Positions 831 to 53,285 are shown, counted from the first letter of the stretch. The stretch is 54,765 nt of DNA from an uncultured bacterium (GCA_965369815.1 CBDUQS010000002.1:1-54765), one strand, 5' to 3'. Numbers and translations are program-made. The notes: generated from the letters alone by a model not told the origin.

Positions 831-967
831 CTTATCTCGTCACTTTCACTCTTTAACTCCAATGAACTATCGGAGCAGGATGAGCGAATCAGAAATAAGA
901 CTTAAAATAATTAATGCTCAAAGATTCTATCAGAGAGAGCTTCAGGGTGCAAGGTAAAAATTAAAAA

Positions 968-996
968 TTGACAAAATAACAAGATAAACTAATAAT
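968..996 (+). promoter_or_regulatory. TTGACA-16/17-TAATAAT promoter candidate
   Basis: Upstream of the ORF at 1020, embedded in a period-7 A-rich array. Confidence 0.45.
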
Positions 997-1019
997 AGGC
1001 TCCATAATAATAAAGTATT

Positions 1020-1487
1020 ATGCTCTCCATACAAGAAACATTTACTGGAATAAAAAGTAAGGCTGAAAAAATATTAGGTCTAGATAAAAAATCTGAACTA
1101 GCTCTTCTAACACGTGATAGGGTTGAAGATTTAGTAAATGGATTTTTAAAATACTATTCCATAGATCAACTCAATGGAAATGAAGCCCTATTCTACCAAA
1201 ATGAAGCCCAGCTTCGACAGGATGTTATAAGGCGGCTCAGAAGAATATTGCCAGATCACATTCTAGAAGATAGTAATTGGCTTGATGTTCAAAATTTATT
1301 TGAAAAATTTTTTTCAAAAGGAGGATTATTGGTTAAGGGTGATGATGAAGAGGTATACAAGGATTTGGCTGAAAGAATGGAGTACTCAGTTGATTTACTT
1401 AAAAAAATAATGTATTGCGTCGGTCGTAGTCAGCGACTAGGAATAAAAACGTCTGGAGTCAATACAGTTGACAAAGTAAAAAAGTAA
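1020..1487 (+). CDS. hypothetical soluble helical protein (155 aa)
   Basis: Only long ORF here. TTGACA-N17-TAATAAT-like promoter at 968-996. No recognisable motif. Confidence 0.6.
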   Translation: MLSIQETFTGIKSKAEKILGLDKKSELALLTRDRVEDLVNGFLKYYSIDQLNGNEALFYQNEAQLRQDVIRRLRRILPDHILEDSNWLDVQNLFEKFFSKGGLLVKGDDEEVYKDLAERMEYSVDLLKKIMYCVGRSQRLGIKTSGVNTVDKVKK

Positions 1488-1495
1488 GGTAAAAT
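1468..1495 (+). promoter_or_regulatory. TTGACA-16-TAAAAT promoter candidate
   Basis: Inside the 3' end of the 1020-1487 ORF, 27 nt upstream of the ATG at 1522. Confidence 0.45.
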
Positions 1496-1521
1496 TAAAC
1501 ACTTAAGTAACCCCCCAAAAA

Positions 1522-1968
1522 ATGACTGAAAAACCGAATCATCATCCAGATGAAGCTACAAAAAACCTAGAAGAGCAACGCCTCAGGCTAGCAAAACAGC
1601 TGGAGCTACCTGAAAACACAACTTCTGAGCAAATAGACACACTGGGAAAGGTAAGGGAATTTAGCGGTCACGAAGAGATGCTTCGTACTCATTTTATCGA
1701 TCATATACGCATTGCCACTTGCCAACCATTTTCCGATGACATGAGCTGGAGTCAAATCAATGAAATAGTTGAAAAACTAATGTTCACCTTAATTCAAAAA
1801 GAATCCGATGAACCAGATGGTCCCAATCTTCTAAAAATGATGAGTGCGGTTCACCCAGATGACTACGAAGAGATAGATAAAAAATTGTGTAAAATTCTTG
1901 GACTCCCAGGGGGTTCAACTGAAGATCTAACTGAATGCATTCAGAAAGGAATTAATTTCGAAAAATAA
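1522..1968 (+). CDS. hypothetical acidic helical protein (148 aa), possible distant paralog of 1020-1487
   Basis: ORF with TTGACA-N16-TAAAAT at 1468-1495. Shares a D-x-S-W...EK(F/L) block and a C-terminal KK(I/L)...G block with the upstream protein (weak similarity, by eye). Confidence 0.6.
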   Translation: MTEKPNHHPDEATKNLEEQRLRLAKQLELPENTTSEQIDTLGKVREFSGHEEMLRTHFIDHIRIATCQPFSDDMSWSQINEIVEKLMFTLIQKESDEPDGPNLLKMMSAVHPDDYEEIDKKLCKILGLPGGSTEDLTECIQKGINFEK

Positions 1969-1996
1969 ATTCAGATGAATAAGTAAAATATTCTAT

Positions 1997-2254
1997 ATGA
2001 AACATTTCAGAAGTGGATTCATAGAAGGTAAGCTCCATGAGGATGGGAAAAAGCCAATCATTCTAGGGGAAACGATTTTCTGCCCCTACTCAGAAGAAGA
2101 ACCATGCCCAGAAAATCATCGAGACTACAGCCCAACAGAAGTTATTATCGATGGAGAAAGACGAATCTTATACAGATGCTTCAATGGTTGCACTAGAAAT
2201 TTAGATGAGGAAGATTATGAACACATTGATGGAAGAATCATCAAGAAAGCTTAA
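1997..2254 (+). CDS. hypothetical small Cys-containing protein (85 aa), possible metal-binding
   Basis: ORF contains CPYSEEEPCPENH and CFNGC. Its 3' end overlaps the convergent methyltransferase gene by 14 nt. Confidence 0.45.
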   Translation: MKHFRSGFIEGKLHEDGKKPIILGETIFCPYSEEEPCPENHRDYSPTEVIIDGERRILYRCFNGCTRNLDEEDYEHIDGRIIKKA

Positions 2255-3410
2255 TCAACTCCACCACTGTTTCCATATGATTGGTCTGAGGGAATAGATC
2301 GAAAACCGCCACGCTTTTTAATTGATAGTGTTTTTTGAATTTCGGCAGATCTTTTTCAAGCTGTTTAATATTACAAGAAATATAAACAATCGCTTTGGGT
2401 TGAATTCGAATCAGTTCTTCAATCGTCTTCGGGTGCATTCCACTCCGAGGAGGATCAGTCACCACATATAAAGGAGCGGAAAGTGTCAGCTTTCGAAGCT
2501 GAGTCGCATCCATATTAATCGCTTCCACATTATCCGTTTTATTCAGCTTAATATTCGCATTAGCAGCAACCGTACAACCCTCAAAACTCTCCACTGTTTT
2601 CACGGTTTTAAATAAATCTGCATTAATAATGCCAAATGTCCCCACTCCCCCATATAAATCCAACAAATGAGTTTTATATTCTTCATTATCTGAATACCCT
2701 TTTAGCAATTCATTCACATATTCATGCATTTTTTCTGCCATCGCATGATTGTTCTGAAAAAACCCCTGAGCACTGTAATGAAAAGTCTTACCCATCATGG
2801 TTTCTTCGAGCATATCGGAACCCTTGATGGCGATAAATTCCTCTCCATAGCTCATATCGGTTTTGGCAGGCATATAGGTAATTAAAACATTGTTCGCAGA
2901 TGTTTTCAGTGAAAAAGCCTTGATCCGCTCCACAGCGTCACCACATTTAGAAGAATCTTTATTTAAAACAAAGGAAATAGAAGAATCGTTCTGAGGCGTG
3001 CGAATCACCGCGTAACGGTAAGTTCCCGTATGCTCCTTTGGCTCAAAATCATCCGCGTCACCAAAAGCATCCCAAACTTCTTTAATCAATTCATTCAATC
3101 GTGGATTCGAAATCGCGCATTCCGGAATACTCACCCGCCACCGCCAGCTCTTCTTTTGCCGAAAGCCAATCCCCTCCTCCGTAAATACCATATCCATTCG
3201 ATTCCGATAAAAATACTCTTCGCCAGAAAACATTTGAACACCTTGCCTACCGGCAGGCAGGTCTTCAAATTCCGTCACCTGAGCAGCTCGTTTTTTCTTA
3301 TTTTCCAGTTGAACTTCATAAGGAATGTGCTGCATCACACAGCCACCACATTTATCACGGAAGCCAGTATCAGGAAGGGCGAAATAAGGACATTTAGGTT
3401 CTCTGGTCAT
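2241..3410 (-). CDS. RumA/TrmA-family SAM-dependent RNA (uracil-5)-methyltransferase, no N-terminal TRAM domain
   Basis: 389 aa. N-terminal Cys cluster (CPYF...CGGCVMQH...PECA, like the RumA Fe-S site), SAM motif LDLYGGVGTFG, VVTDPPRSG, and catalytic-Cys block VYISCN. Confidence 0.85.
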   Translation of the reverse strand: MTREPKCPYFALPDTGFRDKCGGCVMQHIPYEVQLENKKKRAAQVTEFEDLPAGRQGVQMFSGEEYFYRNRMDMVFTEEGIGFRQKKSWRWRVSIPECAISNPRLNELIKEVWDAFGDADDFEPKEHTGTYRYAVIRTPQNDSSISFVLNKDSSKCGDAVERIKAFSLKTSANNVLITYMPAKTDMSYGEEFIAIKGSDMLEETMMGKTFHYSAQGFFQNNHAMAEKMHEYVNELLKGYSDNEEYKTHLLDLYGGVGTFGIINADLFKTVKTVESFEGCTVAANANIKLNKTDNVEAINMDATQLRKLTLSAPLYVVTDPPRSGMHPKTIEELIRIQPKAIVYISCNIKQLEKDLPKFKKHYQLKSVAVFDLFPQTNHMETVVELIKLS

Positions 3411-3474: not shown

Positions 3475-3488
3475 CAGTGACTAGTGAC
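3475..3488 (+). repeat. heptamer array YAGTGAC x2
   Basis: cagtgac tagtgac, then taaaaa and the ATG at 3495. A second pair (agtaagt tagtaag) lies at 3411-3424. Confidence 0.6.
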
Positions 3489-3494
3489 TAAAAA

Positions 3495-4538: not shown

Positions 4539-4540
4539 CT

Positions 4541-4620
4541 CGAATAGTGCGCCAAATAGTGGACCGAATTGTTGTATGACAAACCACTATACGGTGCACT
4601 ATGCGGTCCACCATCCGAAT
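4541..4620 (+). repeat. long imperfect palindromic element, copy A
   Basis: cgaatagtgcgccaaatagtggaccgaattgttgtatgacaaaccactatacggtgcactatgcggtccaccatccgaat. About 85% identical to copy B over 80 nt, and folds as a ~20-bp imperfect hairpin. Confidence 0.8.
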
Positions 4621-4622
4621 CT

Positions 4623-5444
4623 ATGAAGATTAAGGCTTCCATCATCATCCTCGACTTCTTTAAAAGCAAACGAGTTTGTGAGAATGTTAAAAGTATCCTT
4701 AAGCAAAAGGTGGATTTTAAATATGAAGTGATCGTCGTCGACAACAGCGCCAACCCGCTAAATGCCAAAAAGCTGGAATCCCTCAGGAAATTCCCCAACG
4801 TTAAGCTTTATATCAACGATGAAAATGTTGGTTACCCCAAAGGGAATAATCAAGGCGTCGCTCGCTCTAAAGGTGAATATGTATTGATTGTGAATCCCGA
4901 TATTCTGTGGGGAAAGGCGGATACGCTTCAAAAATTGGTGAATGCAATGGAAAAAGATTCAACCATTGGTGTACTCGGCCCCAAACAAATCAACGACGGA
5001 GACAATTCAATCGCCATGACCGTCCGACGCTTCCCCAAACTCACCCTTCAGATCGCAAGGCGCACGAAACTACGAAAGCTACCCATCATCCGTGATCTGG
5101 TCGCCAAAGACGAATGCCGAGATTTAAACTACAGCAAAACTCAGGAAGTCGACTGGCTCCAATCCAGCTTCTGGATCACTCCTCGAAAACTCTGGAACAA
5201 ACTCGGCGGCCTCGACACTCGCTATCGAATTTTCATGACAGATCCAGATTACTGCTGGAAAGCATGGAAAGCGGGCTACCGCGTGATTTATGAACCCTCT
5301 ATCCAAGTCCACGCCGACGGTATCCGCTGCAGCCACGGCGGAGTAAAAGAATTCTTCAGCAAATGGATCCTCCGTCAGCACTTTGTCGACGCCGTGAAAT
5401 ACAGAGTACGGCATTTTGGAAAAAGGAATCCAAGAAGAAAATAA
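4623..5444 (+). CDS. family 2 glycosyltransferase
   Basis: ASIIILDFF...EVIVVDNSANP...GYPKGNNQG...LIVNPD pattern. The ORF track starts at 4569, but those 18 extra codons read through the palindromic repeat element, so ATG at 4623 is preferred. Confidence 0.8.
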   Translation: MKIKASIIILDFFKSKRVCENVKSILKQKVDFKYEVIVVDNSANPLNAKKLESLRKFPNVKLYINDENVGYPKGNNQGVARSKGEYVLIVNPDILWGKADTLQKLVNAMEKDSTIGVLGPKQINDGDNSIAMTVRRFPKLTLQIARRTKLRKLPIIRDLVAKDECRDLNYSKTQEVDWLQSSFWITPRKLWNKLGGLDTRYRIFMTDPDYCWKAWKAGYRVIYEPSIQVHADGIRCSHGGVKEFFSKWILRQHFVDAVKYRVRHFGKRNPRRK

Positions 5445-5462: not shown

Positions 5463-6815
5463 ATGACATTAACAAAAAAATTAGGAATTGTATTTTTCAC
5501 ACTCCTTGTTGTAGCAATAGCCAACACGAGTGTTGTTTATAATTTTCAAACTTCACAAAAAACCGATGCAGCGATCATTGATGCAGCGGGTCGAAACAGA
5601 ATGCTATCTCAGAAAATAGGCTTTCTTGCCGAACAAATAGTCAATGGCAATGAATCGATAAAATCAGAACTTCAAGAAGTCATCTATCTTCACGACACCT
5701 CATTTTTAGCTCTAAAAAACGGAGGAATTGCGCCAGGAATATCAAACAATCGAACTCTGCCAGAAACTATTCCTTCCATTATGCCTTTAGTAGAAAATGC
5801 TGGTGAACTCTGGCTAAAATACAAAGCAAATGCCGAGGTTATTGCAAATAAGCCAATTATTATTAATGAAATTCCCAATCCAGCCGTAATAACTGCATTG
5901 AGCTTTATAGAAAAAAATGCGCTAGAGATGCTGAATAGAAACAATGAAATGACCAAGGCTTACGTGATAAGCAATGAAATAAAGCAAAAAAGTACAAATG
6001 GAGCCCTTTTCATTATCCTAATTATCTACGCAATAGTAATAGGATTTGGCTTTATTGTTTCCCGCTCACTCGTTCACACATTAGAAGTGTTAGATAAGGC
6101 AAAAACAAACCTTGTTTCCTTGATTGCCCACCAGTTAAAAACACCAATCACCGCAATAAGCTGGAATACAGAGACATTATTAAGTGGAGATCATGGAGCG
6201 CTCAACCCTGAGCAGACCGACACACTAAATCAAATCGATAATACAAATGGGAGAATGAAGAAATTAATAAACAGTTTTTTGAATATTTCCAATATTGACT
6301 TGGGAGTAGTAACTATTAAAACTAAGACAATTAATTTTATCGATGTATGCGAAGAGGCACTTAATGGAATGGAACCACAGATCTTAGAAAAAAATCACAC
6401 AATCATCAAAAAATATGATAAAAAATCCTCCATTGCCCCAGCGGATCAAAACTTACTACGAATTATCTTCGAAAACCTTATTTCAAATGCAATCAAGTAC
6501 ACTCCAGAGAATGGAGAAATAACGATTTCAATAGGTGCATTAAATCACGAGATTACATTGAGCGTTTCTAACGGCGGAAATCCAATAACCAAGGAGGATC
6601 AATCAAAAATATTCGATAAATTATACCGAACAGATGATGCACAAAAAATGGACCCCGATGGGAATGGGTTGGGTCTTTACCTAGTAAAAAAGATTGTTAA
6701 AAATGCGGGTGGCCGAATCTGGATTGAATCAAAAAAAGGAAGTAACACCATATTTTCTGTCGCCTTTCCTATTACAGGAATGAAGGAGAGAGAAGGCATT
6801 AAATCATTGTCATAA
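5463..6815 (+). CDS. sensor histidine kinase with PilJ/NarX-type periplasmic N-terminal sensor
   Basis: 450 aa. TM helix, AGRNRMLSQKIGFLAEQ (PilJ/NarX P-box-like), second TM, H-box SLIAHQLKTPITAI, N-box NLISNAIKYTP, G-boxes DGNGLGLYLVKKIV. Confidence 0.85.
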   Translation: MTLTKKLGIVFFTLLVVAIANTSVVYNFQTSQKTDAAIIDAAGRNRMLSQKIGFLAEQIVNGNESIKSELQEVIYLHDTSFLALKNGGIAPGISNNRTLPETIPSIMPLVENAGELWLKYKANAEVIANKPIIINEIPNPAVITALSFIEKNALEMLNRNNEMTKAYVISNEIKQKSTNGALFIILIIYAIVIGFGFIVSRSLVHTLEVLDKAKTNLVSLIAHQLKTPITAISWNTETLLSGDHGALNPEQTDTLNQIDNTNGRMKKLINSFLNISNIDLGVVTIKTKTINFIDVCEEALNGMEPQILEKNHTIIKKYDKKSSIAPADQNLLRIIFENLISNAIKYTPENGEITISIGALNHEITLSVSNGGNPITKEDQSKIFDKLYRTDDAQKMDPDGNGLGLYLVKKIVKNAGGRIWIESKKGSNTIFSVAFPITGMKEREGIKSLS

Positions 6816-9944: not shown

Positions 9945-11198
9945 TTAATTATAAAATTCTTTCACCCTATCTAGTACATTATTCAGATCCACCATCTCCG
10001 CATCACTTTTATTTCGCTCCTTCCATTCAGCGGTGCGTGTTTCCATGGTGCGAGATGATAGCACAAGTCGCAGAGGAATGCCAATTAAGTCCGCATCGGC
10101 AAATTTAGCACCCGCTCGCTCATCACGATCATCGAAAAGCACCGTAATACCAGCGCCACGAAGAACATTGTATAAATTGTCCGCTTCTTTCAGTGTTTTC
10201 TCATCCGTTCCAAGCGTAGACAGATGCACTTGATAAGGAGCCACTGATTTTGGCCATAAAATACCCTTATCATCATTAAAAATTTCAACCAAAGTCCCCA
10301 TAATACGAGTGGGGCCAATGCCATAACAACCCATAATCACAGGATTCTTCTTTCCAGATTCATCCACATAGCTGAACTTGAATGCATCGGAGAATTTACT
10401 ACCCAATTTAAAAATATTCCCTACCTCAATCCCCTTCTTTTCCACCAAATCTTTACTATCACATTCAGGGCAGGTGTTTTGATCGTCTAATATTTCTTTA
10501 TTCACCGCAACACGGCACTTTTCACAACAATAAATAGTATCTTCCCCCACTTCGGAAAGGATTTGATATTCATGAGAATATTTACTAAAAGCCCCCCCAG
10601 ATGCATAAGTAAGGTAAGTAACTTCTGGATCAAAGCCAAGTCGCTTAAAAACTTTAAAATAAGCCTCTTTCACACGATCATAATACGCATCTAAATCTTC
10701 TTGAGACGCATGAAAAGAATAAAGATCCTTCATTCCGAACTCCCGCCCTCGAAGAATACCAGATTTAGCACGCGCCTCGTTACGGAATTTGTTCTGAAGC
10801 TGAAAAACCGCTGTTGGAAGATCTTTATAAGAAAGAACATAATTCTGAACCAATGGAGTAACAATCTCCTCATGAGTGGCGCCAAGTGCATATTCTTTAT
10901 TTCCCGCCCCTTTCAATCGAAAAAGAACATCCATTGAATCCCAACGATCTGTTTTTACCCAATTTTCTTTAGGAGCCAAAGCAGGCATTAAAATTTCCTG
11001 AGCATCCACTGCCTCCATTTCTTCTCGAATGATTTGTTCAATTTTACGGAGCGCTTTTAACCCTAATGGCAAATAACTGTAAACCCCTGCCGTCTCTTGA
11101 TGAATGAATCCACCCTGAATCAAATATTTCGCATTCGCGCTATCGGCATCATGCGAAACGGACTTAGTGGTTTTACTGAAAAGTTTAGAATATCTCAT
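9945..11198 (-). CDS. proS: prolyl-tRNA synthetase, compact form lacking the INS editing domain
   Basis: 417 aa. Class II motifs (LRGREFGMKDLYSFH, GCYGIGPTR), bacterial-type N-terminus, C-terminal anticodon-binding domain, and a CCEKC...CPEC insert where INS would be. Confidence 0.9.
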   Translation of the reverse strand: MRYSKLFSKTTKSVSHDADSANAKYLIQGGFIHQETAGVYSYLPLGLKALRKIEQIIREEMEAVDAQEILMPALAPKENWVKTDRWDSMDVLFRLKGAGNKEYALGATHEEIVTPLVQNYVLSYKDLPTAVFQLQNKFRNEARAKSGILRGREFGMKDLYSFHASQEDLDAYYDRVKEAYFKVFKRLGFDPEVTYLTYASGGAFSKYSHEYQILSEVGEDTIYCCEKCRVAVNKEILDDQNTCPECDSKDLVEKKGIEVGNIFKLGSKFSDAFKFSYVDESGKKNPVIMGCYGIGPTRIMGTLVEIFNDDKGILWPKSVAPYQVHLSTLGTDEKTLKEADNLYNVLRGAGITVLFDDRDERAGAKFADADLIGIPLRLVLSSRTMETRTAEWKERNKSDAEMVDLNNVLDRVKEFYN

Positions 11199-11202: not shown

Positions 11203-11230
11203 AAAAGGACTAAGGAGTACGGACTAGGGA
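11203..11230 (+). repeat. heptamer array NNANGGA x4
   Basis: aaaagga ctaagga gtacgga ctaggga, in the proS/pilin divergent spacer. Confidence 0.65.
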
Positions 11231-11349
11231 ATAAGCTTAGTTCTTAAGTAGCCAATTCTCAGTCCTTAAATTAACAACTCCCATTCTAAAGGAAGATAAG
11301 TTTGCCCTCAAGAGAAAGATTGGTTAAAATGAAACCGTAAAAATTAAAA

Positions 11350-11781
11350 ATGAAAATGAAAAAACCACTAAAAACAATCTTACAGTTCAGCGCCGTCATG
11401 GGATTCACCCTAGTACTGCTTTTTGTAATGGATTCGTCAGCATTAGCTCAATTCAGCCCACCAACGCTTTTACCTACAGAAGATGCAAATATTGGGGGTA
11501 GGGGCGATGTCTGCCAAGGATTGGCTACTATGATCAAAAGCGGAAAAATCGGAACTCGGAATCTTCCCTGCTTTGTAAAGTTCTTCACTCAAACGCTCAT
11601 TGGAATTGCAGGAAGCTTGGCAGTGGTTTTTGTGATGATCGGTGGCTATAAATATGTAATTCCTGGAGATGAGAAAAAAGATGAAGCGAAAAAAACAATC
11701 ACCTACGCCCTCATTGGCTTAGCAGTTTCCCTGCTAGCTTGGGTTATTATCGACCTTGTCCTTCAAATCACCACTGAATAG
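11350..11781 (+). CDS. TrbC/VirB2-like type IV secretion pilin (CPR-type T4SS pilin)
   Basis: 143 aa. Signal peptide ending ALAQ, a conserved Cys pair, then two TM helices flanking a charged loop (IAGSLAVVFVMIGGYKYVIPGDEKKDEAKKTITYALIGLAVSLLAWVII), which is the VirB2/TrbC topology. Confidence 0.6.
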   Translation: MKMKKPLKTILQFSAVMGFTLVLLFVMDSSALAQFSPPTLLPTEDANIGGRGDVCQGLATMIKSGKIGTRNLPCFVKFFTQTLIGIAGSLAVVFVMIGGYKYVIPGDEKKDEAKKTITYALIGLAVSLLAWVIIDLVLQITTE

Positions 11782-11793
11782 CAACGAAGAACT

Positions 11794-11807
11794 CATAATT
11801 CATAATT
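11794..11807 (+). repeat. heptamer array CATAATT x2
   Basis: Same unit as the array upstream of purE. Also reads as tandem -10-like hexamers. Confidence 0.65.
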
Positions 11808-11817: not shown

Positions 11818-13065
11818 ATGACCATCAAACGCTCCACAAAAACCTTTCTGCGAAAATCACAAAAAAAGATCGATGCTTTAAGGAAAGCACTTCAAACACT
11901 GAGCTTAAAGGAAAAAAAATTAGAAAATGAAGAAAAAAAATTAATTAAAATGGTTGAAAAGCCAGCTCAGGAAGTGAGGGTCAGCCTTTCGATTGACTCC
12001 GTTGTTAGAGCAACCATCGCTATTTTAGGAGTTATAGGATTCACCTATCTTCTTTTCTTCATCAAGCAAATTATTATTATTTTCCTTGTTGCACTGTTCT
12101 TATCAGCCGCTTTTAATCCCGCTGTTGATAGATTAAACAAATACCATATCCCTCGTGGCCTTGGGATTGTTTTTATGTATATTGCGGTTCTGGGAATCAT
12201 CACCATCATTTTTACATCTCTTGTACCGATCATCGCCGATCAAGTAAGTGATTTAGCCAACCAAGTGCGCAACTATGTTCAAAATATTGTCTCTGGAAGC
12301 CCCGAAGACTCATGGTTTATTCGAAAAATACAACCCATTGCCAATCAGGTATGGCAAAATGTAGATCAAACTCAAATTCTAAACAGCTTAACCAGTGGAT
12401 TAAAAGAAATTGGGTCTAAATTAACCAGCTTCGCCGGCAATGCCATTGGGGCAATCTTTACAATCTTTAATGGTATTTTCAATCTTATTCTCGTACTCAT
12501 TATCACTTTCTTTATGGTGGTGAACAAAGAAAACACCAGTAACTTTTTTCACTCCCTATTCCCAAGTAAGTATTCTGGCTATATTTCAGAAAAAACTAAA
12601 AAGATCAGCATTAAAATTGGTGAATGGGTTCGAGGACAAGTCCTTCTCGCGCTCGCCATGGGGCTTCTTACTTTTATTGTTTTCTCACTAATCGGAGTTA
12701 ACTTCGCCCTAACGCTCGCCATGGTTGCAGCACTCGCTGAATTCGTTCCTTATATCGGACCACTCATCACCTTCCTCTCAGCCGCCCTAATAGCCCTCAA
12801 TCAAAGTCCTGTTATCCTACTATGGCTCATCCCTGCTTACGCGGTTATTCAGTTCCTAGAAGGAAACATAATGGTCCCGCTAATTGTTGGAAAATCAGTA
12901 GGTCTCAATCCAGTTGTAATTTTGTTTGCGCTATTATCAGGAGCAACCATCGGAGTAAAAATTGGTGGAAGCTTCGCCCTTGGTTTAGTCGGCATGATTA
13001 TCGCCGTTCCAATGGCCAATGTGATTTCAATTTTTGTTGAAGACTATACGGGGAAAAACAAGTAG
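11818..13065 (+). CDS. AI-2E family transporter (PerM/UPF0118) with coiled-coil N-terminal extension
   Basis: 415 aa. ~60-aa Lys/Glu-rich N-terminus, then ~8 TM segments with a family-typical C-terminal FVPYIGP...NIMVPLIVGKSVGLNP block. Confidence 0.8.
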   Translation: MTIKRSTKTFLRKSQKKIDALRKALQTLSLKEKKLENEEKKLIKMVEKPAQEVRVSLSIDSVVRATIAILGVIGFTYLLFFIKQIIIIFLVALFLSAAFNPAVDRLNKYHIPRGLGIVFMYIAVLGIITIIFTSLVPIIADQVSDLANQVRNYVQNIVSGSPEDSWFIRKIQPIANQVWQNVDQTQILNSLTSGLKEIGSKLTSFAGNAIGAIFTIFNGIFNLILVLIITFFMVVNKENTSNFFHSLFPSKYSGYISEKTKKISIKIGEWVRGQVLLALAMGLLTFIVFSLIGVNFALTLAMVAALAEFVPYIGPLITFLSAALIALNQSPVILLWLIPAYAVIQFLEGNIMVPLIVGKSVGLNPVVILFALLSGATIGVKIGGSFALGLVGMIIAVPMANVISIFVEDYTGKNK

Positions 13066-14814: not shown

Positions 14815-14927
14815 AAGGGCAATTTAAATTAAGGGGAATATTCTACATGCTTTTAGTTGTTTTGTCGATGTATGAAAAAAATAGGATGACGAATAAGAAA
14901 AGCTCTGATAGACTATCCTCTGTGCAT

Positions 14928-15004
14928 GCCCACATAGCTCAGCTGGATAGAGCACTGGTCTTCGGAACCAGGTGTCGGGGGTTCGAATCCCTCTGTGGGC
15001 ACCA
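14928..15004 (+). tRNA. tRNA-Arg (anticodon UCG), CCA encoded
   Basis: Cloverleaf read by eye: acceptor GCCCACA/TGTGGGC, D arm GCTC-AGCTGGATA-GAGC, anticodon stem CTGGT/ACCAG with loop CTTCGGA, T arm GGGGG-TTCGAAT-CCCTC, discriminator A, CCA. Confidence 0.95.
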
Positions 15005-15046
15005 TGAAAAATGTTCTCTCGGCAAAGCCAAGAGGTTATTTTTCAT
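15004..15046. terminator. bidirectional hairpin between tRNA-Arg and the secF 3' end
   Basis: ATGAAAAAT (15004-15012) pairs with ATTTTTCAT (15038-15046). This encloses an inner stem CTCTCGGC/GCCAAGAG, and A/T runs lie on both sides. Confidence 0.55.
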
Positions 15047-15060
15047 CTACGAAAATAAAA

Positions 15061-16035: not shown

Positions 16036-18090
<2,055 letters not shown>

Positions 18091-21460: not shown

Positions 21461-21495
21461 AAAACTGTAAACTAGAAACTACAAACTGCAAACTG
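21461..21495 (+). repeat. heptamer array NAAACTR x5
   Basis: aaaactg taaacta gaaacta caaactg caaactg, directly 3' of the prfA stop (minus strand). Confidence 0.8.
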
Positions 21496-21499: not shown

Positions 21500-22594
21500 T
21501 TAACTCTGAAACTGAGCCAATTTTTTCGCCTGATCTTCAATCGTTAATTTTTCAATAATATCCGTAATTTCACCATCCATAATTCCTGGTAAATTACTCC
21601 AACTTTGATGAATGCGATGATCGGTTACACGATCTTGTGGAAAATTGTAAGTTCGAATCTTTTCACTACGATCCCCAGATCCAACCATATCAGACCGCAT
21701 ATCCCCTCTTTCTTTGGCTAACCTCTCTTCTTCAAGTTGATACAAACGTGCTCGAAGAACCGACATAGCTTTTGTCTTATTTTTAAGCTGAGATTTTTCG
21801 TCCTGACAGGTCACCACCAAATTAGTTGGTGTGTGAGTGATGCGAACCGCACTATCCGTTGTATTCACGCTCTGACCACCATTTCCACTACTTCTGTATA
21901 CATCAACACGCAAGTCCTCATCTCGAATTTCAATATCCACTTCTTCTGCCTCTGGCAAAACCGCCACGGTCACCGCCGACGTATGAATACGCCCCTGACT
22001 CTCAGTAGAAGGAATACGCTGAACCCGATGAGTACCACTTTCAAACTTCAACTTACTATAAGCTCCATGCCCATCGATTCTAAAAATAATTTCTTTAATT
22101 CCCCCACTGTCAGCTTCATTTTTATTAATCACTTCTGTTTTAAAATTCTGGTCCTCCGCATAACGCATATATGATCGGGAAAGCTCAGCTGCAAAAAGCG
22201 CCGCCTCTTCCCCGCCAGCCCCTGCCCGAATTTCTACAATCACACTTTTCTCATCATTCGAATCCTTTGGAAGTAAAGCAACCTTCAAATCCTCTTCCAA
22301 CTGTTCTTTTTCTTCTTTAGCTCCAACCAAATCCTCCTTAGCCATTGCAATCATTTCTTCATCTTTTTCAGTACTCAAAAGCTCTTCAGATTCCTCAATA
22401 GTTTTTAAAGCTTTTTCGTAAGCATTAATTAGCTCAACAACAGGGCGAAGCTGAGCCCCCTTTTGACCCAATTTACGAAACAAATCCGGATTCGACGCAT
22501 TATTCGGATCGGAAAGATCCTTATTCACCTGTTCATACTCCGCTTTGATTTGAAGTAGCTTATCGAGCATTTTTAAAAGACTATAACGAGACAA
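21500..22594 (-). CDS. prfA: peptide chain release factor 1
   Basis: 364 aa. RF1 tripeptide region [17 protein letters not shown] and GGQ motif [20 protein letters not shown]. Confidence 0.95.
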
Positions 22595-33000: not shown

Positions 33001-33028
33001 TAAAAATTAAAAATTAAAAATTAAAAAT
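33001..33028 (+). repeat. heptamer tandem array TAAAAAT x4 (perfect)
   Basis: Lies between the MFS stop (33029) and the PfkB kinase start (32977). The same unit occurs twice at 955-968. Confidence 0.9.
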
Positions 33029-38082: not shown

Positions 38083-38103
38083 CTACAGCCTACAAGCTAC
38101 AAC
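38083..38103 (+). repeat. heptamer array CTACARN x3
   Basis: ctacagc ctacaag ctacaac, between the 95-aa gene stop and the prmC start. Confidence 0.75.
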
Positions 38104-43361: not shown

Positions 43362-43363
43362 AA

Positions 43364-43445
43364 CCGAATAGTGGACCGAATAGTGGACCAAATTGTTGTA
43401 TGGCAAACCACTATACGGTGCACAATACGGCCCACAAGCCGAAAT
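43364..43445 (+). repeat. long imperfect palindromic element, copy B
   Basis: ccgaatagtggaccgaatagtggaccaaattgttgtatggcaaaccactatacggtgcacaatacggcccacaagccgaaat, located between purC and purE. Confidence 0.8.
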
Positions 43446-43446: not shown

Positions 43447-43467
43447 TATAATTCATAATTCATAATT
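43447..43467 (+). repeat. heptamer array YATAATT x3
   Basis: tataatt cataatt cataatt, ending 4 nt before the purE ATG. The same unit occurs twice at 11794-11807, before the ATG at 11818. Confidence 0.8.
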
Positions 43468-46458: not shown

Positions 46459-46489
46459 TCAAATTGCCAGCCATTTGAAAGCAATTTGA
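46459..46489. promoter_or_regulatory. palindromic motif TCAAATTGC-N13-GCAATTTGA upstream of the aminotransferase gene
   Basis: 9-bp perfect arms at 46459-46467 and 46481-46489. The same motif with the same spacing occurs at 48397-48427. Confidence 0.45.
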
Positions 46490-46523
46490 AGGCTATTTGA
46501 AAACCACTTGAACTATTTGAAAT
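46471..46523 (+). repeat. degenerate ~11-nt tandem array (NNATTTGAANN x5)
   Basis: ccatttgaaag caatttgaagg ctatttgaaaa ccacttgaa ctatttgaaat, ending about 10 nt from the ORF-track ATG at 46533. Confidence 0.6.
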
Positions 46524-46532: not shown

Positions 46533-47777
46533 ATGAATAATAGATCTGCCCTAACAGCCGCAGGCCATCAATTTCGGGAACACAAAATGAGTCGTCGTGT
46601 AAAAAACATGATTGTTTCTCCAATCAAAGAAATGATGATGTTGGCTGCTCAACTTGAAAACCCGTTTTTACTGGCTCAAGGAATCCCCGCAGAAGATACG
46701 CCCGATCATATCAAGCAAGCCATTATCGAAGCCATTCAAGGTCCTCAAGCCTCCAAATATTCGATGTTATCGGGAATGAAAGAATGTCGAGAAGCCGTCG
46801 CTAAGCGATACAAAAGGTATTACAACGTTGATGTTGATTCTGATTCCGAAATTGGAATCACTGCGGGTGGGATGGAAGCGTGCATGATCACCTGTATGGC
46901 CACGATCGACCCAAGCGATGAAGTGATACTGACCGCTCCTTGCTTCTCTTCACACATCGAACAGATTCTCGCCTGCGAAGGAATACCAGTCCTCGTGCAA
47001 ACCAATGAAAAAGAAGGATGGATTTTGGATGTAGAAGCGATTCGAAAGGCAATCAATCCAAAAACCAAAGCCATTTACGTCACCAACCCAAGTAATCCAA
47101 CAGGCGCCGTATTCCCAGAGAATCAGGTGCGCGAATTGGCAAAAATCGCTTTGGAAAACGATCTGTTTATTTTTGCCGATGAAACGTACGACTTTTTAAC
47201 ATATAATAACAAACCATTCTTCAGCTTCTGTCAGATCCCAGAACTCAAAAATAATTTGATTCTAATCGGCAGTAGCTCCAAAGAGCATCGAATGACTGGC
47301 TACCGCCTTGGATGGGTAATTGCTCCGAATGATATTTTAAATCAGCTCTTCAAACTTCACGACGCTACCACAGTATGCGCTTGCGTGGTCTCGCAATTCG
47401 GATTCATTGCCGCCATCAACGGCCCACAAGATTCTGTAAAAGAGCTAAAAAAAGGAATGCAGGAACGTCGAGATCTGATCTGCGACCGCCTCGATAAAGT
47501 ACCTCACCTATTTAGATATTATAAAAAACCAGAAGGCGCTTACTACATTCTACCGGAAATCGTATTCCCTCACGAAAGTTCCATTCAGGTCGCCATGGAT
47601 ATACAAGCCGCCACCAGCGTCGTCACCGTTCCAGGAATCGCATTCGGCCCTGCCAGCGAAGGTCATATACGCTTCTCATTCGGCGGTGGAGCAAGTCGCG
47701 GACCAAAGGGAAAGGAACTAATCAACGAAGCCTTCGACCGACTGGAAGAATGGGGTAAGCAATTTAAAAATTCTTAA
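46533..47777 (+). CDS. class I/II PLP-dependent aminotransferase (aspartate aminotransferase-like)
   Basis: TNPSNPTG, FADETYD and PLP-Lys block GSSSKEHRMTGYRLGW. The start may instead be ATG at 46587 (MSRRVKNM). Confidence 0.85.
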   Translation: MNNRSALTAAGHQFREHKMSRRVKNMIVSPIKEMMMLAAQLENPFLLAQGIPAEDTPDHIKQAIIEAIQGPQASKYSMLSGMKECREAVAKRYKRYYNVDVDSDSEIGITAGGMEACMITCMATIDPSDEVILTAPCFSSHIEQILACEGIPVLVQTNEKEGWILDVEAIRKAINPKTKAIYVTNPSNPTGAVFPENQVRELAKIALENDLFIFADETYDFLTYNNKPFFSFCQIPELKNNLILIGSSSKEHRMTGYRLGWVIAPNDILNQLFKLHDATTVCACVVSQFGFIAAINGPQDSVKELKKGMQERRDLICDRLDKVPHLFRYYKKPEGAYYILPEIVFPHESSIQVAMDIQAATSVVTVPGIAFGPASEGHIRFSFGGGASRGPKGKELINEAFDRLEEWGKQFKNS

Positions 47778-47805
47778 TTCTTAATTCTTAATTCTTAATT
47801 CTTAT
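47771..47805 (+). repeat. heptamer tandem array TTCTTAA x5
   Basis: Four perfect copies plus TTCTTAT. The array contains the aminotransferase stop codon and ends 3 nt before the ATG at 47809. Confidence 0.9.
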
Positions 47806-48369: not shown

Positions 48370-48396
48370 AAATCTCATATTGCTTTCAAATAGCCT

Positions 48397-48427
48397 TCAA
48401 ATTGCTAGCGATCTGAGAGCAATTTGA
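48397..48427. promoter_or_regulatory. second copy of the palindromic motif TCAAATTGC-N13-GCAATTTGA, upstream of the dCMP deaminase gene
   Basis: Arms at 48397-48405 and 48419-48427. The 55-nt block 48384-48438 is the reverse complement of 46448-46502 (23-nt perfect plus 18/20 segments). Confidence 0.45.
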
Positions 48428-48456
48428 TAGCCATCTGGAATTTAAATAAATAAATT

Positions 48457-49077: not shown

Positions 49078-49140
49078 AATCACCAAGTAAAAGCATCTGA
49101 ATCCTGCTATCACGGGATAAGCTGATTGAAGAACGTCGAT

Positions 49141-49185
49141 TCAAACCACTATTCGGCCCACGATACGGCCCACCATTCGATTAGT
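49141..49185 (+). repeat. half copy (right arm only) of the palindromic element, copy C
   Basis: tcaaaccactattcggcccacgatacggcccaccattcgatt matches the right arms of copies A and B. It lies in the ileS leader. Confidence 0.6.
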
Positions 49186-49274
49186 AGACCAATCCGGAGA
49201 CCTCACTCCGTCATCAAATTAAATTAAGTATTAGCCTAGGTGGTAACTTTTCTCACTTTGCTCACCAAATGACG

Positions 49275-49310
49275 ATTGTCATTCCGAGCAAAGCCGAGGA
49301 ACCGAGGCAC
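49275..49310 (+). repeat. GTCATTCC-family element, single arm
   Basis: attgtcattccgagcaaagccgaggaaccgaggcac, preceded by AATGAC (tail-to-head remnant). It creates the spurious ileS N-terminal extension. Confidence 0.65.
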
Positions 49311-49333
49311 TCATTGTTATTATTGAGTGTTTT
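49308..49333 (+). promoter_or_regulatory. weak hairpin plus T-run just upstream of the ileS start (attenuator-like)
   Basis: CACTCA (49308-49313) pairs with TGAGTG (49324-49329), then TTTT. The stem is AT-rich and of low stability. Confidence 0.3.
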
Positions 49334-49353
49334 AATTTGTAATTTGCAATTAA
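49333..49353 (+). repeat. heptamer array TAATTTG x2 plus CAATTAA
   Basis: Ends 2 nt before the preferred ileS ATG at 49356. Confidence 0.65.
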
Positions 49354-49355
49354 TC

Positions 49356-52300
49356 ATGTTTCAGCCCGTAGACCCAAAACAATCCTTTCCAAAAATGGAA
49401 GAAGCACTACTGAAATATTGGAAAGCTGAAAAAACATTTGAAAAATCAGTCACCAAAGGAAAAAAGGACTATGTTTTTTACGATGGACCTCCATTTGCCA
49501 CCGGACTTCCTCACTACGGACACTTGCTCGCAGGAACTTTAAAGGACGTCATGCCACGATACTTCACCATGCAAGGATACCGAGTGGATCGAAAATGGGG
49601 ATGGGACTGCCATGGATTACCTGTAGAAAATGAAGTGGAAAAAGAGCTAAAGTTAGGAAGTAAAACCGATATTGAAGAATATGGTATAGATAAATTCAAC
49701 GAATACTGCCGAAAGATCGTTTTGAAATACGCCGATGAATGGAAAGGAACCGTGGAGCGTATGGGTCGATGGGTCGATATGGAAAACGACTACAAAACTA
49801 TGGACCCAGAATATATGGAAAGTATTTGGTGGGTATTTAAAAGCTTATGGGATAAAAAATTGATTTACGAAGGGAATAAAGTGGTTCCTTACTGCATTCG
49901 CTGTGCCACTCCCCTTTCCAACTTTGAAACCAATCAGGGATACAAAGACAAGCAAGACCCCGCATTAACGGTTAAATTTGAACTCGTAAATGAACCAGGA
50001 ACCTATTTACTCGCTTGGACAACGACTCCTTGGACACTTCCAAGTAATTTAGCCGTTGCGATGGGACCAGAACTTACCTATGCAAAAATCAAAGATTCAA
50101 ATGGTGAAAAGTATATTATTGCACTCGATCGCATCCCGAATTACTACAAAAGCCCAGACGATTACGAAGTACTGGAAGAGTTTTTAGGCAAAACCTTAGA
50201 GGGGGAAAAATACACTCCGCTCCTCCCCTACTACGCCGATAAACCCGAAGAAAAAGTATTCACGGTAACCATGGGTAATTTTGTAACCCTTGAAAGTGGA
50301 ACCGGCCTCGTTCACATGGCACCCTTTGGTGAAGATGATATGGCAATGCTAAAAAAAATGGAGATTGAAGTGGTTCATCCACTCGACGCCGAAGGGAAAT
50401 TCAACAGCGACGTCAAAGAATTTAAAGGAAAGGATGTTTTCACGGCGAATCCAGAGATCATCAAAAAGCTGAAAGATGAAAATAAAGTCGTGAAGCACGA
50501 AACTTGTAATCACAGCTACCCTTTCTGCTGGCGTTGCGATACTCCATTGATTTACCGCCCCATTTCCACATGGTTCGTAAAAGTGGAACAAATGAGAGAA
50601 AAACTTTTAAAAACCAATAAAGAAATTAACTGGATTCCCGATCACCTAAAAGAAGGACGATTCGGGAAATGGCTGGAAGGCGCCAGGGATTGGGCGGTAT
50701 CAAGAAATAGATACTGGGGAGCTCCCCTGCCCATTTGGCGTTGCGACGACTGTGAAGATTTAAAAGTATTCGGTTCCATTAAAGAGCTAGAAAAAGAAAG
50801 TGGTGAAACAGTGAAAGATCTTCACAAACATTTTGTGGATAAAATTGAATTAAAATGTAAATGTGGCAAAAAAATGATCCGCGTCCCCGAAGTTCTCGAC
50901 TGCTGGTTTGAATCGGGTTCTATGCCATACGCCCAACTACACTACCCATTTGAGAACAAGAAAAGGTTTGAAGAAAACTTCCCTGCCCAGTTCATTGCGG
51001 AAGGATTGGATCAAACCCGAGGATGGTTTTATACCCTTCATGTGCTGGCCAACTCACTTTTCGATAAACCCGCCTTTAAAAATGTAATTGTAAATGGAAC
51101 GATGCTCGCCGAAGACGGACAGAAAATGAGCAAGCGACTGAAGAACTATCCAGATCCAAATCAAGTCATGCACGATCATGGAGCAGACGCCCTGCGCTTT
51201 TATTTAATGAATTCTCCCGTCGTTAAAGCCGATGACATGCGCTTCAGCGAAAAAGGGGTATCCGACGTGGTACGAAACATGATTCTGCCCATATGGAATG
51301 CTTATAGCTTCTTCGTGACCTATGCCAATATCGACCAATGGGCTCCAGAAAAGAAGAAAAAGGATTCAGACAACAAGCTTGATCAATGGATCTTAGAAGA
51401 GTTGAACAAATTAATTGTTCAAGAAACAGAATATATGGAAAGTTATGACCTTCAGAAAGCCAGTAACCTAATTTACAAATTCGTCGATAACCTCACCAAC
51501 TGGTACATCCGCCGTTCCCGAAGACGTTTCTGGAAATCGGAAGACGATGGGGATAAAAAGATGGCCTATCAAACGCTTTACACCGTCCTCACCAATCTCT
51601 GCCAAATCGTCGCTCCCTTCATGCCATTCGTAAGCGAAGAGATTTACCGAAACTTAACAGGCGAAGAATCAGTTCATTTATCTAAATATCCATCCTCAAC
51701 CGTAGGTCAGGATAATTATCCTGACCTACGGCAGGAAATGTTCCTCACCAAAACCATCGTTTCCCTTGGTCTCGCCGGTCGAGCGAAAACAAAGATAAAA
51801 GTACGTCAGCCACTCTCCAAAGTTCAAATCGCTCTCGGGGATCAATACGACTCAAAGCTGCTGAACGATCAAATGGATATTGTTAAAGAGGAATTGAATG
51901 TAAAAGAAGTGGAGGTTATTAAAAATCCAAGCGACCTTGCCACCGTGATTGCCAAGCCGAACGCCAAATTACTCGGACCTAAATACGGAAAAGACGTTCA
52001 AAAAATAATCATGGAAGCTAAATCGGGTAACTTTGAACGCCTTAAAAACGGAAATTTAAAAGTATTGGATTTCGAGCTTCTACCGGAGGAGATGGAAATC
52101 GCCTACTTAGGTAAAGACGGCACCGACGTAGAAACCGAAGAAGGAATTTTGGTGGCTTTAGATACTAAAATAACCCCCGAACTAGAGCAAGAAGGCTTAG
52201 CCCGTGATCTCGTCCGACAAATTCAAGACCTACGAAAAGCTGCGGACTATAAAGTGGATGACCGCATCCAAATTGCTCTCGTTAATGTTGATAAAAACCT

Positions 52301-52421: not shown

Positions 52422-52455
52422 TCCTCTTTTGTCATCCTGAGAGAAGCCGAAGGAT
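52421..52455 (+). repeat. GTCATTCC-family element, single arm, immediately after the ileS stop
   Basis: gtcctcttttgtcatcctgagagaagccgaaggat. The GTCCTCTT(TT)GTCAT lead-in is shared with 21342-21355. Confidence 0.65.
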
Positions 52456-52525
52456 TAAAAGATAATTTCAACTTTGAAAAATCGAATAATCTGATAAGAT
52501 GAAGATTGATTTATAAACGGTAAAA

Positions 52526-52906
52526 ATGAGCTTCCTACGAAGACTACTCGCCCACATCGTCGCCAACGCCGCCGCCCTTTACTTTGTAACCGAGTTATTG
52601 AGTGGAAACTTTGTAATAACCGGTAGCTACAAAGGGTATTTAATCGCCGCAGTACTTTTCGGTATTTTAAATGGAGTGATCAAACCAATCCTAAAACTCC
52701 TTTCACTTCCATTCATTCTCATCAGTGCAGGGGTCTTTATTTTGGTGATCAATGTATTCCTGGTTTGGTTTGCCAAATACGCACTCGATATTCTCCAATT
52801 TGAAGGGGTACGGATCTTGATTGAAGGAGGTCCTGCCACTTACCTTTACGCTGGCCTCACAATCAGTATTATCAACATGATCATCACTTGGCTACTTAAA
52901 AAATAG
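52526..52906 (+). CDS. phage-holin-family-4/DUF360-like small membrane protein
   Basis: 126 aa, 4 TM. GVIKPILKLLSLPFILISAGVFILVINVFLVW matches the family pattern from memory. Confidence 0.65.
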   Translation: MSFLRRLLAHIVANAAALYFVTELLSGNFVITGSYKGYLIAAVLFGILNGVIKPILKLLSLPFILISAGVFILVINVFLVWFAKYALDILQFEGVRILIEGGPATYLYAGLTISIINMIITWLLKK

Positions 52907-52911
52907 ATTGA

Positions 52912-53121
52912 ATGAATTGGAAATTAATCCTATTTTTCATTATCACTTTGTTCACACTTTTGTACTTAGTGGAATTTTGGGAAAACCGCCACACCAAAAT
53001 AAACTTTCAAATGTTCGGACAGAAGATTGAAATGACTCTCGGCCTCCTCCTCTTCGCCGTATTCATCGACGGCTCCATCCTAACCTTAATCATCCTTTGG
53101 TTATTAGGAGTTTTTGGATAA
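52912..53121 (+). CDS. small two-TM membrane protein (LapA/DUF1049-like)
   Basis: 69 aa with two hydrophobic helices. Lies 5 nt downstream of the previous gene. Confidence 0.5.
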   Translation: MNWKLILFFIITLFTLLYLVEFWENRHTKINFQMFGQKIEMTLGLLLFAVFIDGSILTLIILWLLGVFG

Positions 53122-53130
53122 TTAACCTTT

Positions 53131-53228
53131 TTTTGTCATTTCGAGCCTGTCGAGAAATCCCTTTGCTAAATACCACCCATAATAGAAATAAGGATAGGGA
53201 TTCCTCCGCATGGGTCGGAATGACAAAA
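53131..53228. repeat. GTCATT-family element, inverted pair with diverged cores (MITE-like, 98 nt)
   Basis: Left arm TTTTGTCATTTCGAGCCTGTCGAGAAATCCC, right arm GGGATTCCTCCGCATGGGTCGGAATGACAAAA. The termini TTTTGTCATT/AATGACAAAA are inverted. It lies between convergent genes. Confidence 0.7.
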
Positions 53229-53250
53229 TAAGAGTAAGACTAAAAACCCA

Positions 53251-53285
53251 CAATCTAAAATCTGAAATCTGAGATCAGAGATATT
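53251..53285 (+). repeat. heptamer array (A/C)A(A/G)ATCTR x5
   Basis: caatcta aaatctg aaatctg agatcag agatatt, abutting the pilT stop. Confidence 0.75.

Follow-up and report, generated by a model that had tools for sequence, protein, structure and literature searches.

Results

We analyzed short head-to-tail repeats with a 7-nt unit (heptamer arrays) in a 54.8-kb stretch of DNA from an uncultured bacterium (GCA_965369815.1, CBDUQS010000002.1:1-54765), referred to below as the window. The window has a GC content of ~40% and is ~93% coding. Its 49 genes, defined by open reading frames (ORFs), are separated by 46 spacers that sum to 3981 nt and are ~72% A+T. The genes are ordinary chromosomal ones, including gyrB, ileS, purC, purE, purB, and genes for an aminotransferase, a PfkB kinase, a PilT-like ATPase, and a tRNA synthetase. 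The start regions of the 49 genes are essentially devoid of Shine–Dalgarno motifs. A/T-rich sequence (e.g., AAAAATG) leads up to nearly every start codon, and several promoters have an extended −10 box of the TGGTATAAT type, located 35 to 45 nt 5′ of the start codon.

GyrB of the window is at most 66% identical to that of any GTDB species representative, and its top matches are metagenome-assembled genomes (MAGs) of Candidatus Peribacteria and Gracilibacteria. Homologs of three further window proteins, where their source is named, are labeled Candidatus Peregrinibacteria or Patescibacteria. Because of these protein matches, we assign the window to a Peregrinibacteria-like lineage of the candidate phyla radiation (CPR), with a compact genome poor in Shine–Dalgarno sequences. 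A cyanobacterial origin was considered and rejected, as GyrB and the other proteins point to this lineage and no unit of the short tandemly repeated repetitive (STRR) sequences of cyanobacteria occurs in tandem. A search of Joint Genome Institute metagenome contigs by protein patterns found no close relatives, and the exact GyrB sequence of the window had no match on record. Syntenic contigs of relatives span 57 to 95% protein identity to the window: 94 to 95% for L081, L082, L085, and L212; 84 to 88% for L083, L086, and L213; 80% for L084; 71 to 73% for L087, L088, and L091; 63% for L089; and 57% for L090.

The original prediction held that tandem arrays of exactly 7 nt, with a different unit at each locus, fill the spacers of this DNA. 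All the arrays that it listed were found at their positions in the window (Table 1). For each period, exact tandem repeats with two or more units were counted in the spacers and their 10-nt flanks (4842 nt in sum), and the counts were compared with those from 200 dinucleotide-preserving shuffles. Period 7 was observed 12 times, versus 0.64 ± 0.72 expected (shuffle maximum 3), whereas neither period 6 (2 versus 2.0 expected) nor period 8 (0 versus 0.26 expected) was in excess. Within the coding sequence of the window, period 7 likewise showed no excess (3 versus 4.3 expected). Base autocorrelation of the spacers gave z scores of +6.2, +3.4, and +2.6 at lags 7, 14, and 21, and of −0.3 and +2.0 at lags 6 and 8. 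The lag-7 score dropped to 1.2 once the 15 spacer arrays were masked; the periodicity is thus that of discrete arrays and not a diffuse property of the spacers. The excess of period 7 over periods 6 and 8 therefore clearly persists with A/T-richness controlled, and the original prediction holds in this respect. The 15 arrays lie in 14 of the 46 spacers. That the arrays fill the spacers was an overstatement, because they amount to ~437 nt, or 11% of spacer bases. Nor does each locus have a unit of its own: TAAAAAT-type, CATAATT, and TYCTTAR units each recur at two to three loci.

Table 1 Heptamer arrays of the window, with neighboring gene ends.
Unit and copies	Coordinates	Strand	Context
TAAAAAT ×2.1	955-969	+	Divergent spacer, directly 5′ of a TTGACA-N17-AATAAT promoter-like site; ATG 1020 is 50 nt on
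AGTGACT ×2.1	3476-3490	+	4 nt ahead of ATG 3495
Degenerate TCCTTAG-type ×4 (sense)	11203-11233	−	4 nt from start of tRNA-synthetase gene (9945-11198)
AAAAATK ×3.7	11339-11363	+	Overlaps start of pilin-like gene at 11350
TCATAAT ×2.1	11793-11807	+	36-nt intercistronic spacer, pilin to AI-2E transporter
AAACTGN ×4.9	21462-21495	−	4 nt past stop of gene 21500-22594 (−); AAACT core invariant, two adjacent columns variable
ATYCTTA ×4	25688-25715	+	72% of a 39-nt intercistronic spacer; ATG 5 nt on
AAATTCT/AAACCCT ×3.4	31139-31162	−	Downstream of stop of gene 31203-31817 (−)
TTCGAGC-type ×4	31166-31195	−	Adjoins array 31139-31162
TAAAAAT ×4.1	33001-33029	−	Begins at MFS stop codon; PfkB start 23 nt on
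GAATTTC (sense) ×4.4	37648-37679	−	Within PrmC-like methyltransferase gene, in frame
CTACARN ×3	38083-38103	−	42-nt intercistronic spacer
ATAATTC ×2.9	43448-43467	+	After 12-mer hairpin element; purE ATG 4 nt on
AATTCTT ×5.1	47769-47804	+	Unit 1 holds aminotransferase stop; next ATG 4 nt on
TAATTTG ×2.7	49333-49351	+	Between terminator-like hairpin and ileS ATG 49357
AATCTGA-type ×3.6	53252-53276	−	Starts 7 nt past stop of PilT-like gene

We extended the count with Tandem Repeats Finder to a clade set made up of the window, L081, L083 to L087, and L089 to L091 (12.8 kb of spacer and 140.7 kb of coding sequence). The clade spacers hold 32 period-7 arrays, about 2.5 per kb of spacer, compared with 0, 0, 3, 3, 2, 4, 5, 1, and 6 arrays of periods 5, 6, 8, 9, 10, 11, 12, 13, and 14. 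In the coding sequence, period 7 is unremarkable, with seven arrays. The clade arrays are 76% A+T and G-poor, consist of two to six units, and use more than 10 different units. Their density varies within the clade, from nine arrays in the 14.6 kb of L089 to none in the 21 kb of L090. Period counts over 80 gyrB loci were noisy when two-unit arrays were included and informative only at 2.8 copies or more. At this threshold, the window clade (77 kb) has 14 period-7 arrays and none of periods 5, 8, or 9; 15 CPR-labeled gyrB loci (267 kb) have 9, 14, 7, and 7 arrays of periods 6, 7, 8, and 9; and 55 loci of other bacteria (910 kb) have 13, 20, 25, and 24 arrays of the same periods. These data indicate that heptamer arrays are a trait strongly enhanced in the window clade and perhaps shared to a mild degree by CPR as a whole, but not by bacteria in general.

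Relative to the genes, the arrays are placed nonrandomly. On the sense strand, 8 of the 16 window arrays end 4 to 10 nt 5′ of an ATG, and 7 of the 16 start at a stop codon or at most 11 nt from one; several take up 42 to 87% of very short intercistronic spacers. When only spacers offering 40 nt or more of free room are considered, a start or stop codon is no more than 10 nt away for 12 of 23 clade arrays, compared with 4.1 expected under uniform placement (P = 1e-4), which bears out the claim that arrays often abut gene ends. About half of the clade arrays follow stop codons or lie in a protein loop, and eight overlap the stop codon itself. In the array at 47769-47804, the first unit encodes the last codons of the aminotransferase and its TAA, in the window and in L081 alike. 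An array arising at the 3′ end of a gene would redefine the position of its stop, which may be why several arrays include the stop codon.

Comparison of orthologous spacers in relatives, which the original prediction had proposed, revealed turnover both of copy number and of the unit itself. The aminotransferase-to-kinase spacer has TTCTTAA ×5 in the window and ×3 in L081 and L082. Between a conserved terminator-like hairpin and the ATG of ileS, the window has TAATTTG ×2.7, and L081 and L082 have TCCTTAR ×4.6. The spacer between the pilin and AI-2E transporter genes carries TCATAAT ×2 in the window, a GCTTATT-type array ×5 in L212, and NTTCTTA ×4 in L213. In place of the adjoining arrays at 31139 (AAATTCT ×3.4) and 31166 (TTCGAGC ×4), L085 has unrelated sequence with CTATTTN ×3.9; the flanking promoter and leader are conserved between the two genomes (95% protein identity). 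The array at 53252 (AATCTGA ×3.6) is absent from the orthologous spacer of L081. The arrays at 11203 and 11339 are identical in L212, as is the array at 33001 (ATTTTTA ×4) in L086 at 84% protein identity.

Altogether, seven arrays could be compared at 94 to 95% protein identity; two were unchanged, one differed in copy number, and four were replaced or absent. Array-free spacers are nearly unchanged at this distance, the spacer from PfkB to the next gene showing a few base differences. Judged from these alignments, the arrays evolve fast, through gain and loss of whole units and through replacement of the unit at one site. A change of unit even at one orthologous site supports the proposal that a constant period and a variable unit reflect a period-specific generator and not a mobile repeat. 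We also found no resemblance of the arrays to mobile repeats of the miniature inverted-repeat transposable element or repetitive extragenic palindromic type, as the units differ by locus and the arrays have neither common flanks nor terminal inverted repeats.

Two contigs of relatives end within perfect arrays: that of L087 (11100-11199) in ACCACTAATGG, ×8 or more, and that of L089 (14504-14590) in TTATCATTTATCAA ×6.2, the 14-nt unit of which equals 2 × 7. Long perfect arrays probably break assemblies.

The ileS leader has features of its own. A mechanical ORF call for ileS begins 88 nt too early (49269-49356) and takes in the TAATTTG array; when aligned with L081, the gene starts at ATG 49357. 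About 150 nt of the leader are conserved (window 49078-49330, L081 4567-4760), with a T-box-like AGGTGGTA followed by the terminator-like hairpin. A T-box riboswitch was nevertheless rejected despite the GGTGGTA motif, as Rfam reports no T-box in the window or in L081, even at E ≤ 1.

One window array, at 37648-37679, lies inside a gene. It is translated as NIRISNFGFRDF and lies in a variable loop just ahead of the LLDIGTGSG motif of the PrmC-like methyltransferase. At the same site, L087 has GGACTAA ×4.4, L089 has CACAAAT ×5.6, L091 has CACAAAT ×4.6, and L090 has nothing. Three different units thus occur in four genomes (window, L087, L089, and L091), all in frame, and the copy numbers of CACAAAT in L089 and L091 differ by a whole unit. 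In L087, the one unit with a potentially in-frame TAA reads TAC. The generator therefore acts on DNA irrespective of coding status, and selection sets what survives.

We examined the arrays for signs of a function at the RNA level. The original prediction had suggested that stop-bearing units make the arrays frame-independent translation insulators. A stop triplet is present in 11 of 15 window units on the sense strand, compared with 46% of background spacer heptamers (P = 0.03), and in 10 of 15 on the antisense strand. Of 29 nonredundant clade arrays read on the sense strand, 11 block every frame and 9 leave all three open. An array closes 1.66 frames on average in sense orientation and 1.79 in antisense, versus 1.48 ± 0.21 for units with shuffled bases (P = 0.40). 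Because stop content is no higher than on the antisense strand or in shuffled units, nothing apart from composition favors the insulator role, and we rejected it.

Array-bearing leaders (−40 to +20) have a mean minimum free energy of −2.3 kcal/mol, versus −3.6 for their own shuffles; for other leaders the values are −3.8 and −4.0, and the two groups of leaders differ with Mann–Whitney P = 0.066 (n = 10). The low structure of the leaders is attributable to their A/T-richness. The arrays themselves fold like their shuffles (−1.33 versus −1.06, P = 0.32), and some units, such as TTTCGAA, are self-complementary. The idea that the arrays ensure structure-free RNA was rejected on these grounds, the difference between leaders being only a trend. 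No sense-strand bias of G versus C was found in the clade arrays (12 with C>G, 12 with G>C, and 7 equal), and strand or composition bias as a pointer to RNA-level selection was rejected as well.

To place these arrays more broadly, we scanned public metagenomes for (TCCTTAR)×3, which returned at least 120 matching stretches, and analyzed 80 of these, ranging in GC content from 34% to 67%. With query-type arrays excluded, the 80 stretches contain 100 period-7 arrays, versus 32, 37, and 52 of periods 6, 8, and 9; the matched contigs may include eukaryotes, as AAACCCT arrays are among them. Genomes with one heptamer array therefore tend to hold many, with different units. The TCCTTAR arrays of these 80 stretches have no preferred orientation relative to ORFs (14 sense and 14 antisense before starts; 30 and 30 after stops), and an orientation bias in other organisms was rejected. 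One locus with 62% GC from a Christensenellales MAG (L062) has CAATTGA and ATTGTCA arrays of 4.4 to 4.6 copies at 5706-5737, 11931-12084, 12590-12620, and 16228-16259, three of these arrays being regularly spaced, 61 nt apart.

Discussion

The heptamer arrays of the window are probably heptanucleotide simple sequence repeats that gain and lose units by a slippage-type process with a 7-nt preference and are then filtered by selection. A process at the DNA level would add or remove whole 7-bp units anywhere in the genome. Strand slippage during replication or repair would be its most likely form, and this Peregrinibacteria-like lineage would have an intrinsic bias toward a register of 7 nt. Selection would then purge arrays that break reading frames, promoters, or terminators, and the survivors would sit in the least constrained DNA, namely the leader before a start and the few bases after a stop. 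Leaders would tolerate arrays because there is almost no Shine–Dalgarno sequence to keep. In long spacers, the remainder would hold constrained elements (promoters, hairpins, and conserved leader), and the bases just 5′ of a Shine–Dalgarno-less start codon and just 3′ of a stop would be free. A tolerant protein loop would occasionally keep an array when its total length preserves the frame; the arrays of the PrmC-like gene argue that the generator acts regardless of coding status. Because there is no strand bias, stop excess, or folding reduction, and because the orientation of TCCTTAR arrays elsewhere is symmetric, the arrays bear no RNA-level signature. These results suggest that the arrays, as a class, have no dedicated function.

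Several observations weigh against this reading. The closeness to gene ends exceeds that expected from uniform placement (12 of 23 arrays versus 4.1) and is accounted for only through constraint elsewhere in the spacer. Some arrays are identical at 84 to 94% protein identity, and array-bearing leaders tend to fold less than others (−2.3 versus −3.8 kcal/mol, P = 0.066). Arrays with a CTTA core (CTTANNN) are on the sense strand, just 5′ of starts, in five of five independent clade spacers, which is suggestive but not significant (P ~0.06). Finally, the mismatches of 12 degenerate arrays fall preferentially in neighboring columns, with a core that stays invariant, as in the array at 21462-21495, where AAACT is followed by GT, AG, AC, GC, and G. 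The longest invariant runs sum to 50, versus 38.9 ± 3.3 expected (P = 0.001), in a test of 12 arrays that edge units may inflate. Simple slippage with random point mutation does not predict such clustering, which keeps duplication with junction errors and weak functional models alive.

Two of the alternatives concern the generator. Instead of ordinary slippage, a lineage-enhanced machine with a fixed register might duplicate DNA, for example, a polymerase, or a step in break repair, that makes copies of exactly 7 nt with an error-prone junction. Such a machine would explain the invariant core next to hypervariable columns, the insertion into a coding loop, and the two-unit arrays that arose de novo; we consider it unlikely. 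If true, the comparison between an array-dense genome and the array-poor L090 would be a direct comparative handle on a 7-nt preference in prokaryotes. Rather improbable, in our view, is a fixed-length duplication without slippage, such as fill-in and religation of 7-nt staggered breaks (the footprint of a nuclease, recombinase, or transposase) with error-prone junctions. The exact unit length, the de novo two-unit arrays at 955, 3476, and 11793, and the variation in adjacent columns (P = 0.001), as for junctions, fit this mechanism; a family X polymerase gene is present in L085, and several arrays adjoin hairpin elements. However, the arrays are accompanied by no transposase, nuclease, or element ends, whereas perfect arrays of four to six units and whole-unit polymorphism are products of slippage. 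The column test has the small sample and possible edge inflation given above, and a heptamer bias in very different organisms argues for a general property of replication.

The other alternatives assign the arrays a function, or none of biological origin. It is possible, though we doubt it, that they are selected cis-elements of mRNA leaders without Shine–Dalgarno sequences, serving as A/U-rich landing pads or as platforms for proteins that bind ~7 nt per domain (cold-shock protein, S1), with copy number tuning initiation. Half of the window arrays end 4 to 10 nt before an ATG, the proximity to gene ends is nonrandom, the genes lack Shine–Dalgarno sequences, and array-bearing leaders tend to be less structured; the invariant core with variable columns, the sense orientation of CTTA-core arrays, and the precedent of the TAACTGA repeats (PMC4679880), the closest one, point the same way. 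Yet the core varies by locus (CTTA, AGTTT, TGTAG, GATTT, TTCG, and others), so that one reader protein would be insufficient, and about half of the arrays follow stop codons or lie in the protein loop. In addition, the arrays show no strand bias of composition and fold like their shuffles. Leaders of most genes without an array are just as rich in A/T, a protein divergence of 5% suffices for over half of the arrays to be replaced or lost, and TCCTTAR arrays elsewhere have no preferred orientation. Contingency loci, in which copy number would switch a neighboring gene on or off within the population (phase variation), could explain why copy number differs between close relatives and why arrays lie between a promoter or stop and a start, like the AGAT repeats of Moraxella uspA2 as cited in PMC4679880. 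The downstream genes are mostly housekeeping genes (purE, ileS, a nucleotide kinase, and a tRNA synthetase), though, the arrays are short (two to five units), and a 7-nt change in an untranslated, Shine–Dalgarno-less leader has no obvious switching effect, which makes phase variation very unlikely. Insulation of packed genes in all frames is highly improbable. Although sense-strand stops exceed background and several arrays of at least three units close three frames (e.g., 25688, 33001, 43448, and 47769), the antisense strand is similar and 9 of the 29 clade arrays close no frame. Period 7 goes unexplained, because any period not divisible by 3 would serve, and 5, 8, or 10 would do as well. 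Moreover, the in-gene arrays are translated and have stop-free units, and arrays are present as well in a promoter region and between the 3′ ends of convergent genes, with no downstream gene needing insulation. As for chance or an assembly artifact, the spacers are A/T-rich and two-unit arrays are short, but the excess over dinucleotide-preserving shuffles, its absence at periods 6 and 8, the lag-7 z score, array lengths shorter than sequencing reads, and the presence of the same arrays in separately deposited assemblies (L081 and L082; L087 and L088) leave this explanation a negligible probability.

We place the window arrays in a class already described, heptanucleotide simple sequence repeats, here found in a lineage that is new to the class and unusually compact. 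According to the summaries in PMC4679880 and PMC4692102, Mrázek, Guo and Shah (2007, PNAS 104:8472) found heptanucleotides to be the most abundant class among long simple sequence repeats (LSSRs) of 5 to 11 nt and proposed that ~7 nt interacts with the polymerase and favors slippage; the genomes richest in such repeats are, as one of these summaries lists them, those of Burkholderia, Cyanobacteria, Actinobacteria, and Xanthomonas. As far as these summaries describe the class, it shares with the window head-to-tail 7-nt arrays, many units per genome, intergenic concentration, and length variation between relatives. The window arrays show its features: a head-to-tail 7-nt unit, an excess over their own composition, a concentration outside coding sequence, and whole-unit change between relatives. 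The difference from the class as summarized is that the window comes from a compact (~93% coding), Shine–Dalgarno-poor CPR genome, with arrays of two to six units, ~2.5 per kb of spacer, pressed against gene ends.

Among named systems, the TAACTGA repeats of marine Beggiatoaceae, some Cyanobacteria, and Bacteroidetes resemble the window arrays in lying near the starts of unrelated, often housekeeping genes. MacGregor (2015; PMC4679880) described 169 sets of TAACTGA ×2-6, mostly just 5′ of start codons in Shine–Dalgarno-less leaders, and proposed binding by S1, cold-shock protein (Csp), or CsrA. That system has one dominant unit, which prefers the forward orientation, and repeats of related heptamers are rare, whereas the window clade has many units, about half of its arrays after stop codons, and no strand bias; no TAACTGA tandem was found in the window or 11 clade loci. 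Rehm (2015; PMC4692102) reported heptameric repeats strongly over-represented between the genes of Xanthomonas and Nostoc, with extensive variation of length and sequence among close relatives. STRR heptamers of heterocystous cyanobacteria were reported for Calothrix PCC 7601, as cited there. Like the window arrays, the STRR sequences and the GGGAATC and GGGGAYT repeats are intergenic tandem heptamers that vary at the same positions between relatives (PMC4692102). In contrast, the units of the STRR sequences and of Xanthomonas and Nostoc are defined and often G-rich, some are capable of forming G-quadruplexes, and they reach dozens of copies, whereas the window arrays are A/T-rich and short. 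Neither GGGAATC nor GGGGAYT occurs in tandem in the window or clade loci. The same holds there for the units of STRR1 to STRR3 (CCCCAGT, TTGGTCA, and CAACAGT). The tandem repeats of Borgs, which are extrachromosomal elements (Schoelmerich 2023; PMC9879509), are similar in their fast, independent origin, their location in spacers (often from the gene end) and in frame within ORFs, and their differences between relatives. In Borgs, the units are longer and differ widely in length, and those within ORFs are always divisible by 3; the in-ORF unit of the window is 7 nt, and three units make seven codons.

Full-text literature searches on heptanucleotide tandem repeats, and on tandem heptamers in CPR, Patescibacteria, or Peregrinibacteria, found no description of heptamer arrays for these lineages. 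Two aspects are additions to the known class: the in-frame arrays in a conserved enzyme and the documented turnover of units at orthologous sites. That heptanucleotide repeats are over-represented in the intergenic DNA of bacteria was recognized in 2007, and for cyanobacteria as early as 1990. The phenomenon extends here to a streamlined, host-dependent CPR lineage in which arrays make up most of some intercistronic gaps. From the array-dense window and L089 to the array-poor L090, the clade offers a compact comparative series for finding the cause of this over-representation. In practical terms, the arrays alter where genes end and where start codons are called, are found at contig breaks in related assemblies, and give proteins 7-residue peptide repeats.

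Other repeat elements

Two families of hairpin elements, distinct from the heptamer arrays, also occur in the window. One is an element of ~85 nt made of inverted tandem 12-mers, (ACCGAATAGTGG)n, with the loop ATTGTTGTATGRCAA and then (CCACTATWCGGY)n, at 4539-4611, 43362-43440, and 49146-49179. The two full copies follow stop codons; the half copy is inserted in the leader of ileS, at a point where 10 unrelated bases stand in L081. The other is a family of small hairpins beginning with TTGTCATTCC, at 21348(+)/21413(−), 49276(+), 52429(+), and 53133(+)/53226(−). All six are intergenic, with two inverted pairs among them, and none has an Rfam match at the gathering threshold. Their stems (CCCGCGAAGGCGGG, CCGAGCAAAGCCGAGG, TTCGAGCCTGTCGAGAA, and others) differ by compensatory changes. 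The PrmC-like gene of L087 has a hairpin of this family, TTGTTCATTCC...GGAATGACAA, as an in-frame insert (~5190-5250) that adds ~14 residues (CSFLHFGRNDKTKL...) to the N-terminal domain. The insert is absent in the window and three other relatives and is reminiscent of Rickettsia palindromic elements.

Two further spacers are expanded in the window relative to L081. At 46469-46522, an 11-nt tandem array, AGCWATTTGAA ×5, stands where the spacer of L081 is 18 nt, and at 48370-48456 an inverted-repeat spacer of CAAATWGC units stands where that of L081 is 10 nt. Finally, tRNA-Arg(TCG) and an adjacent hairpin are inverted in L212 (7390-7499; 94% protein identity) relative to the window (14900-15050), and the inverted segment is flanked by the inverted repeats ATGAAAAAT / ATTTTTCAT.

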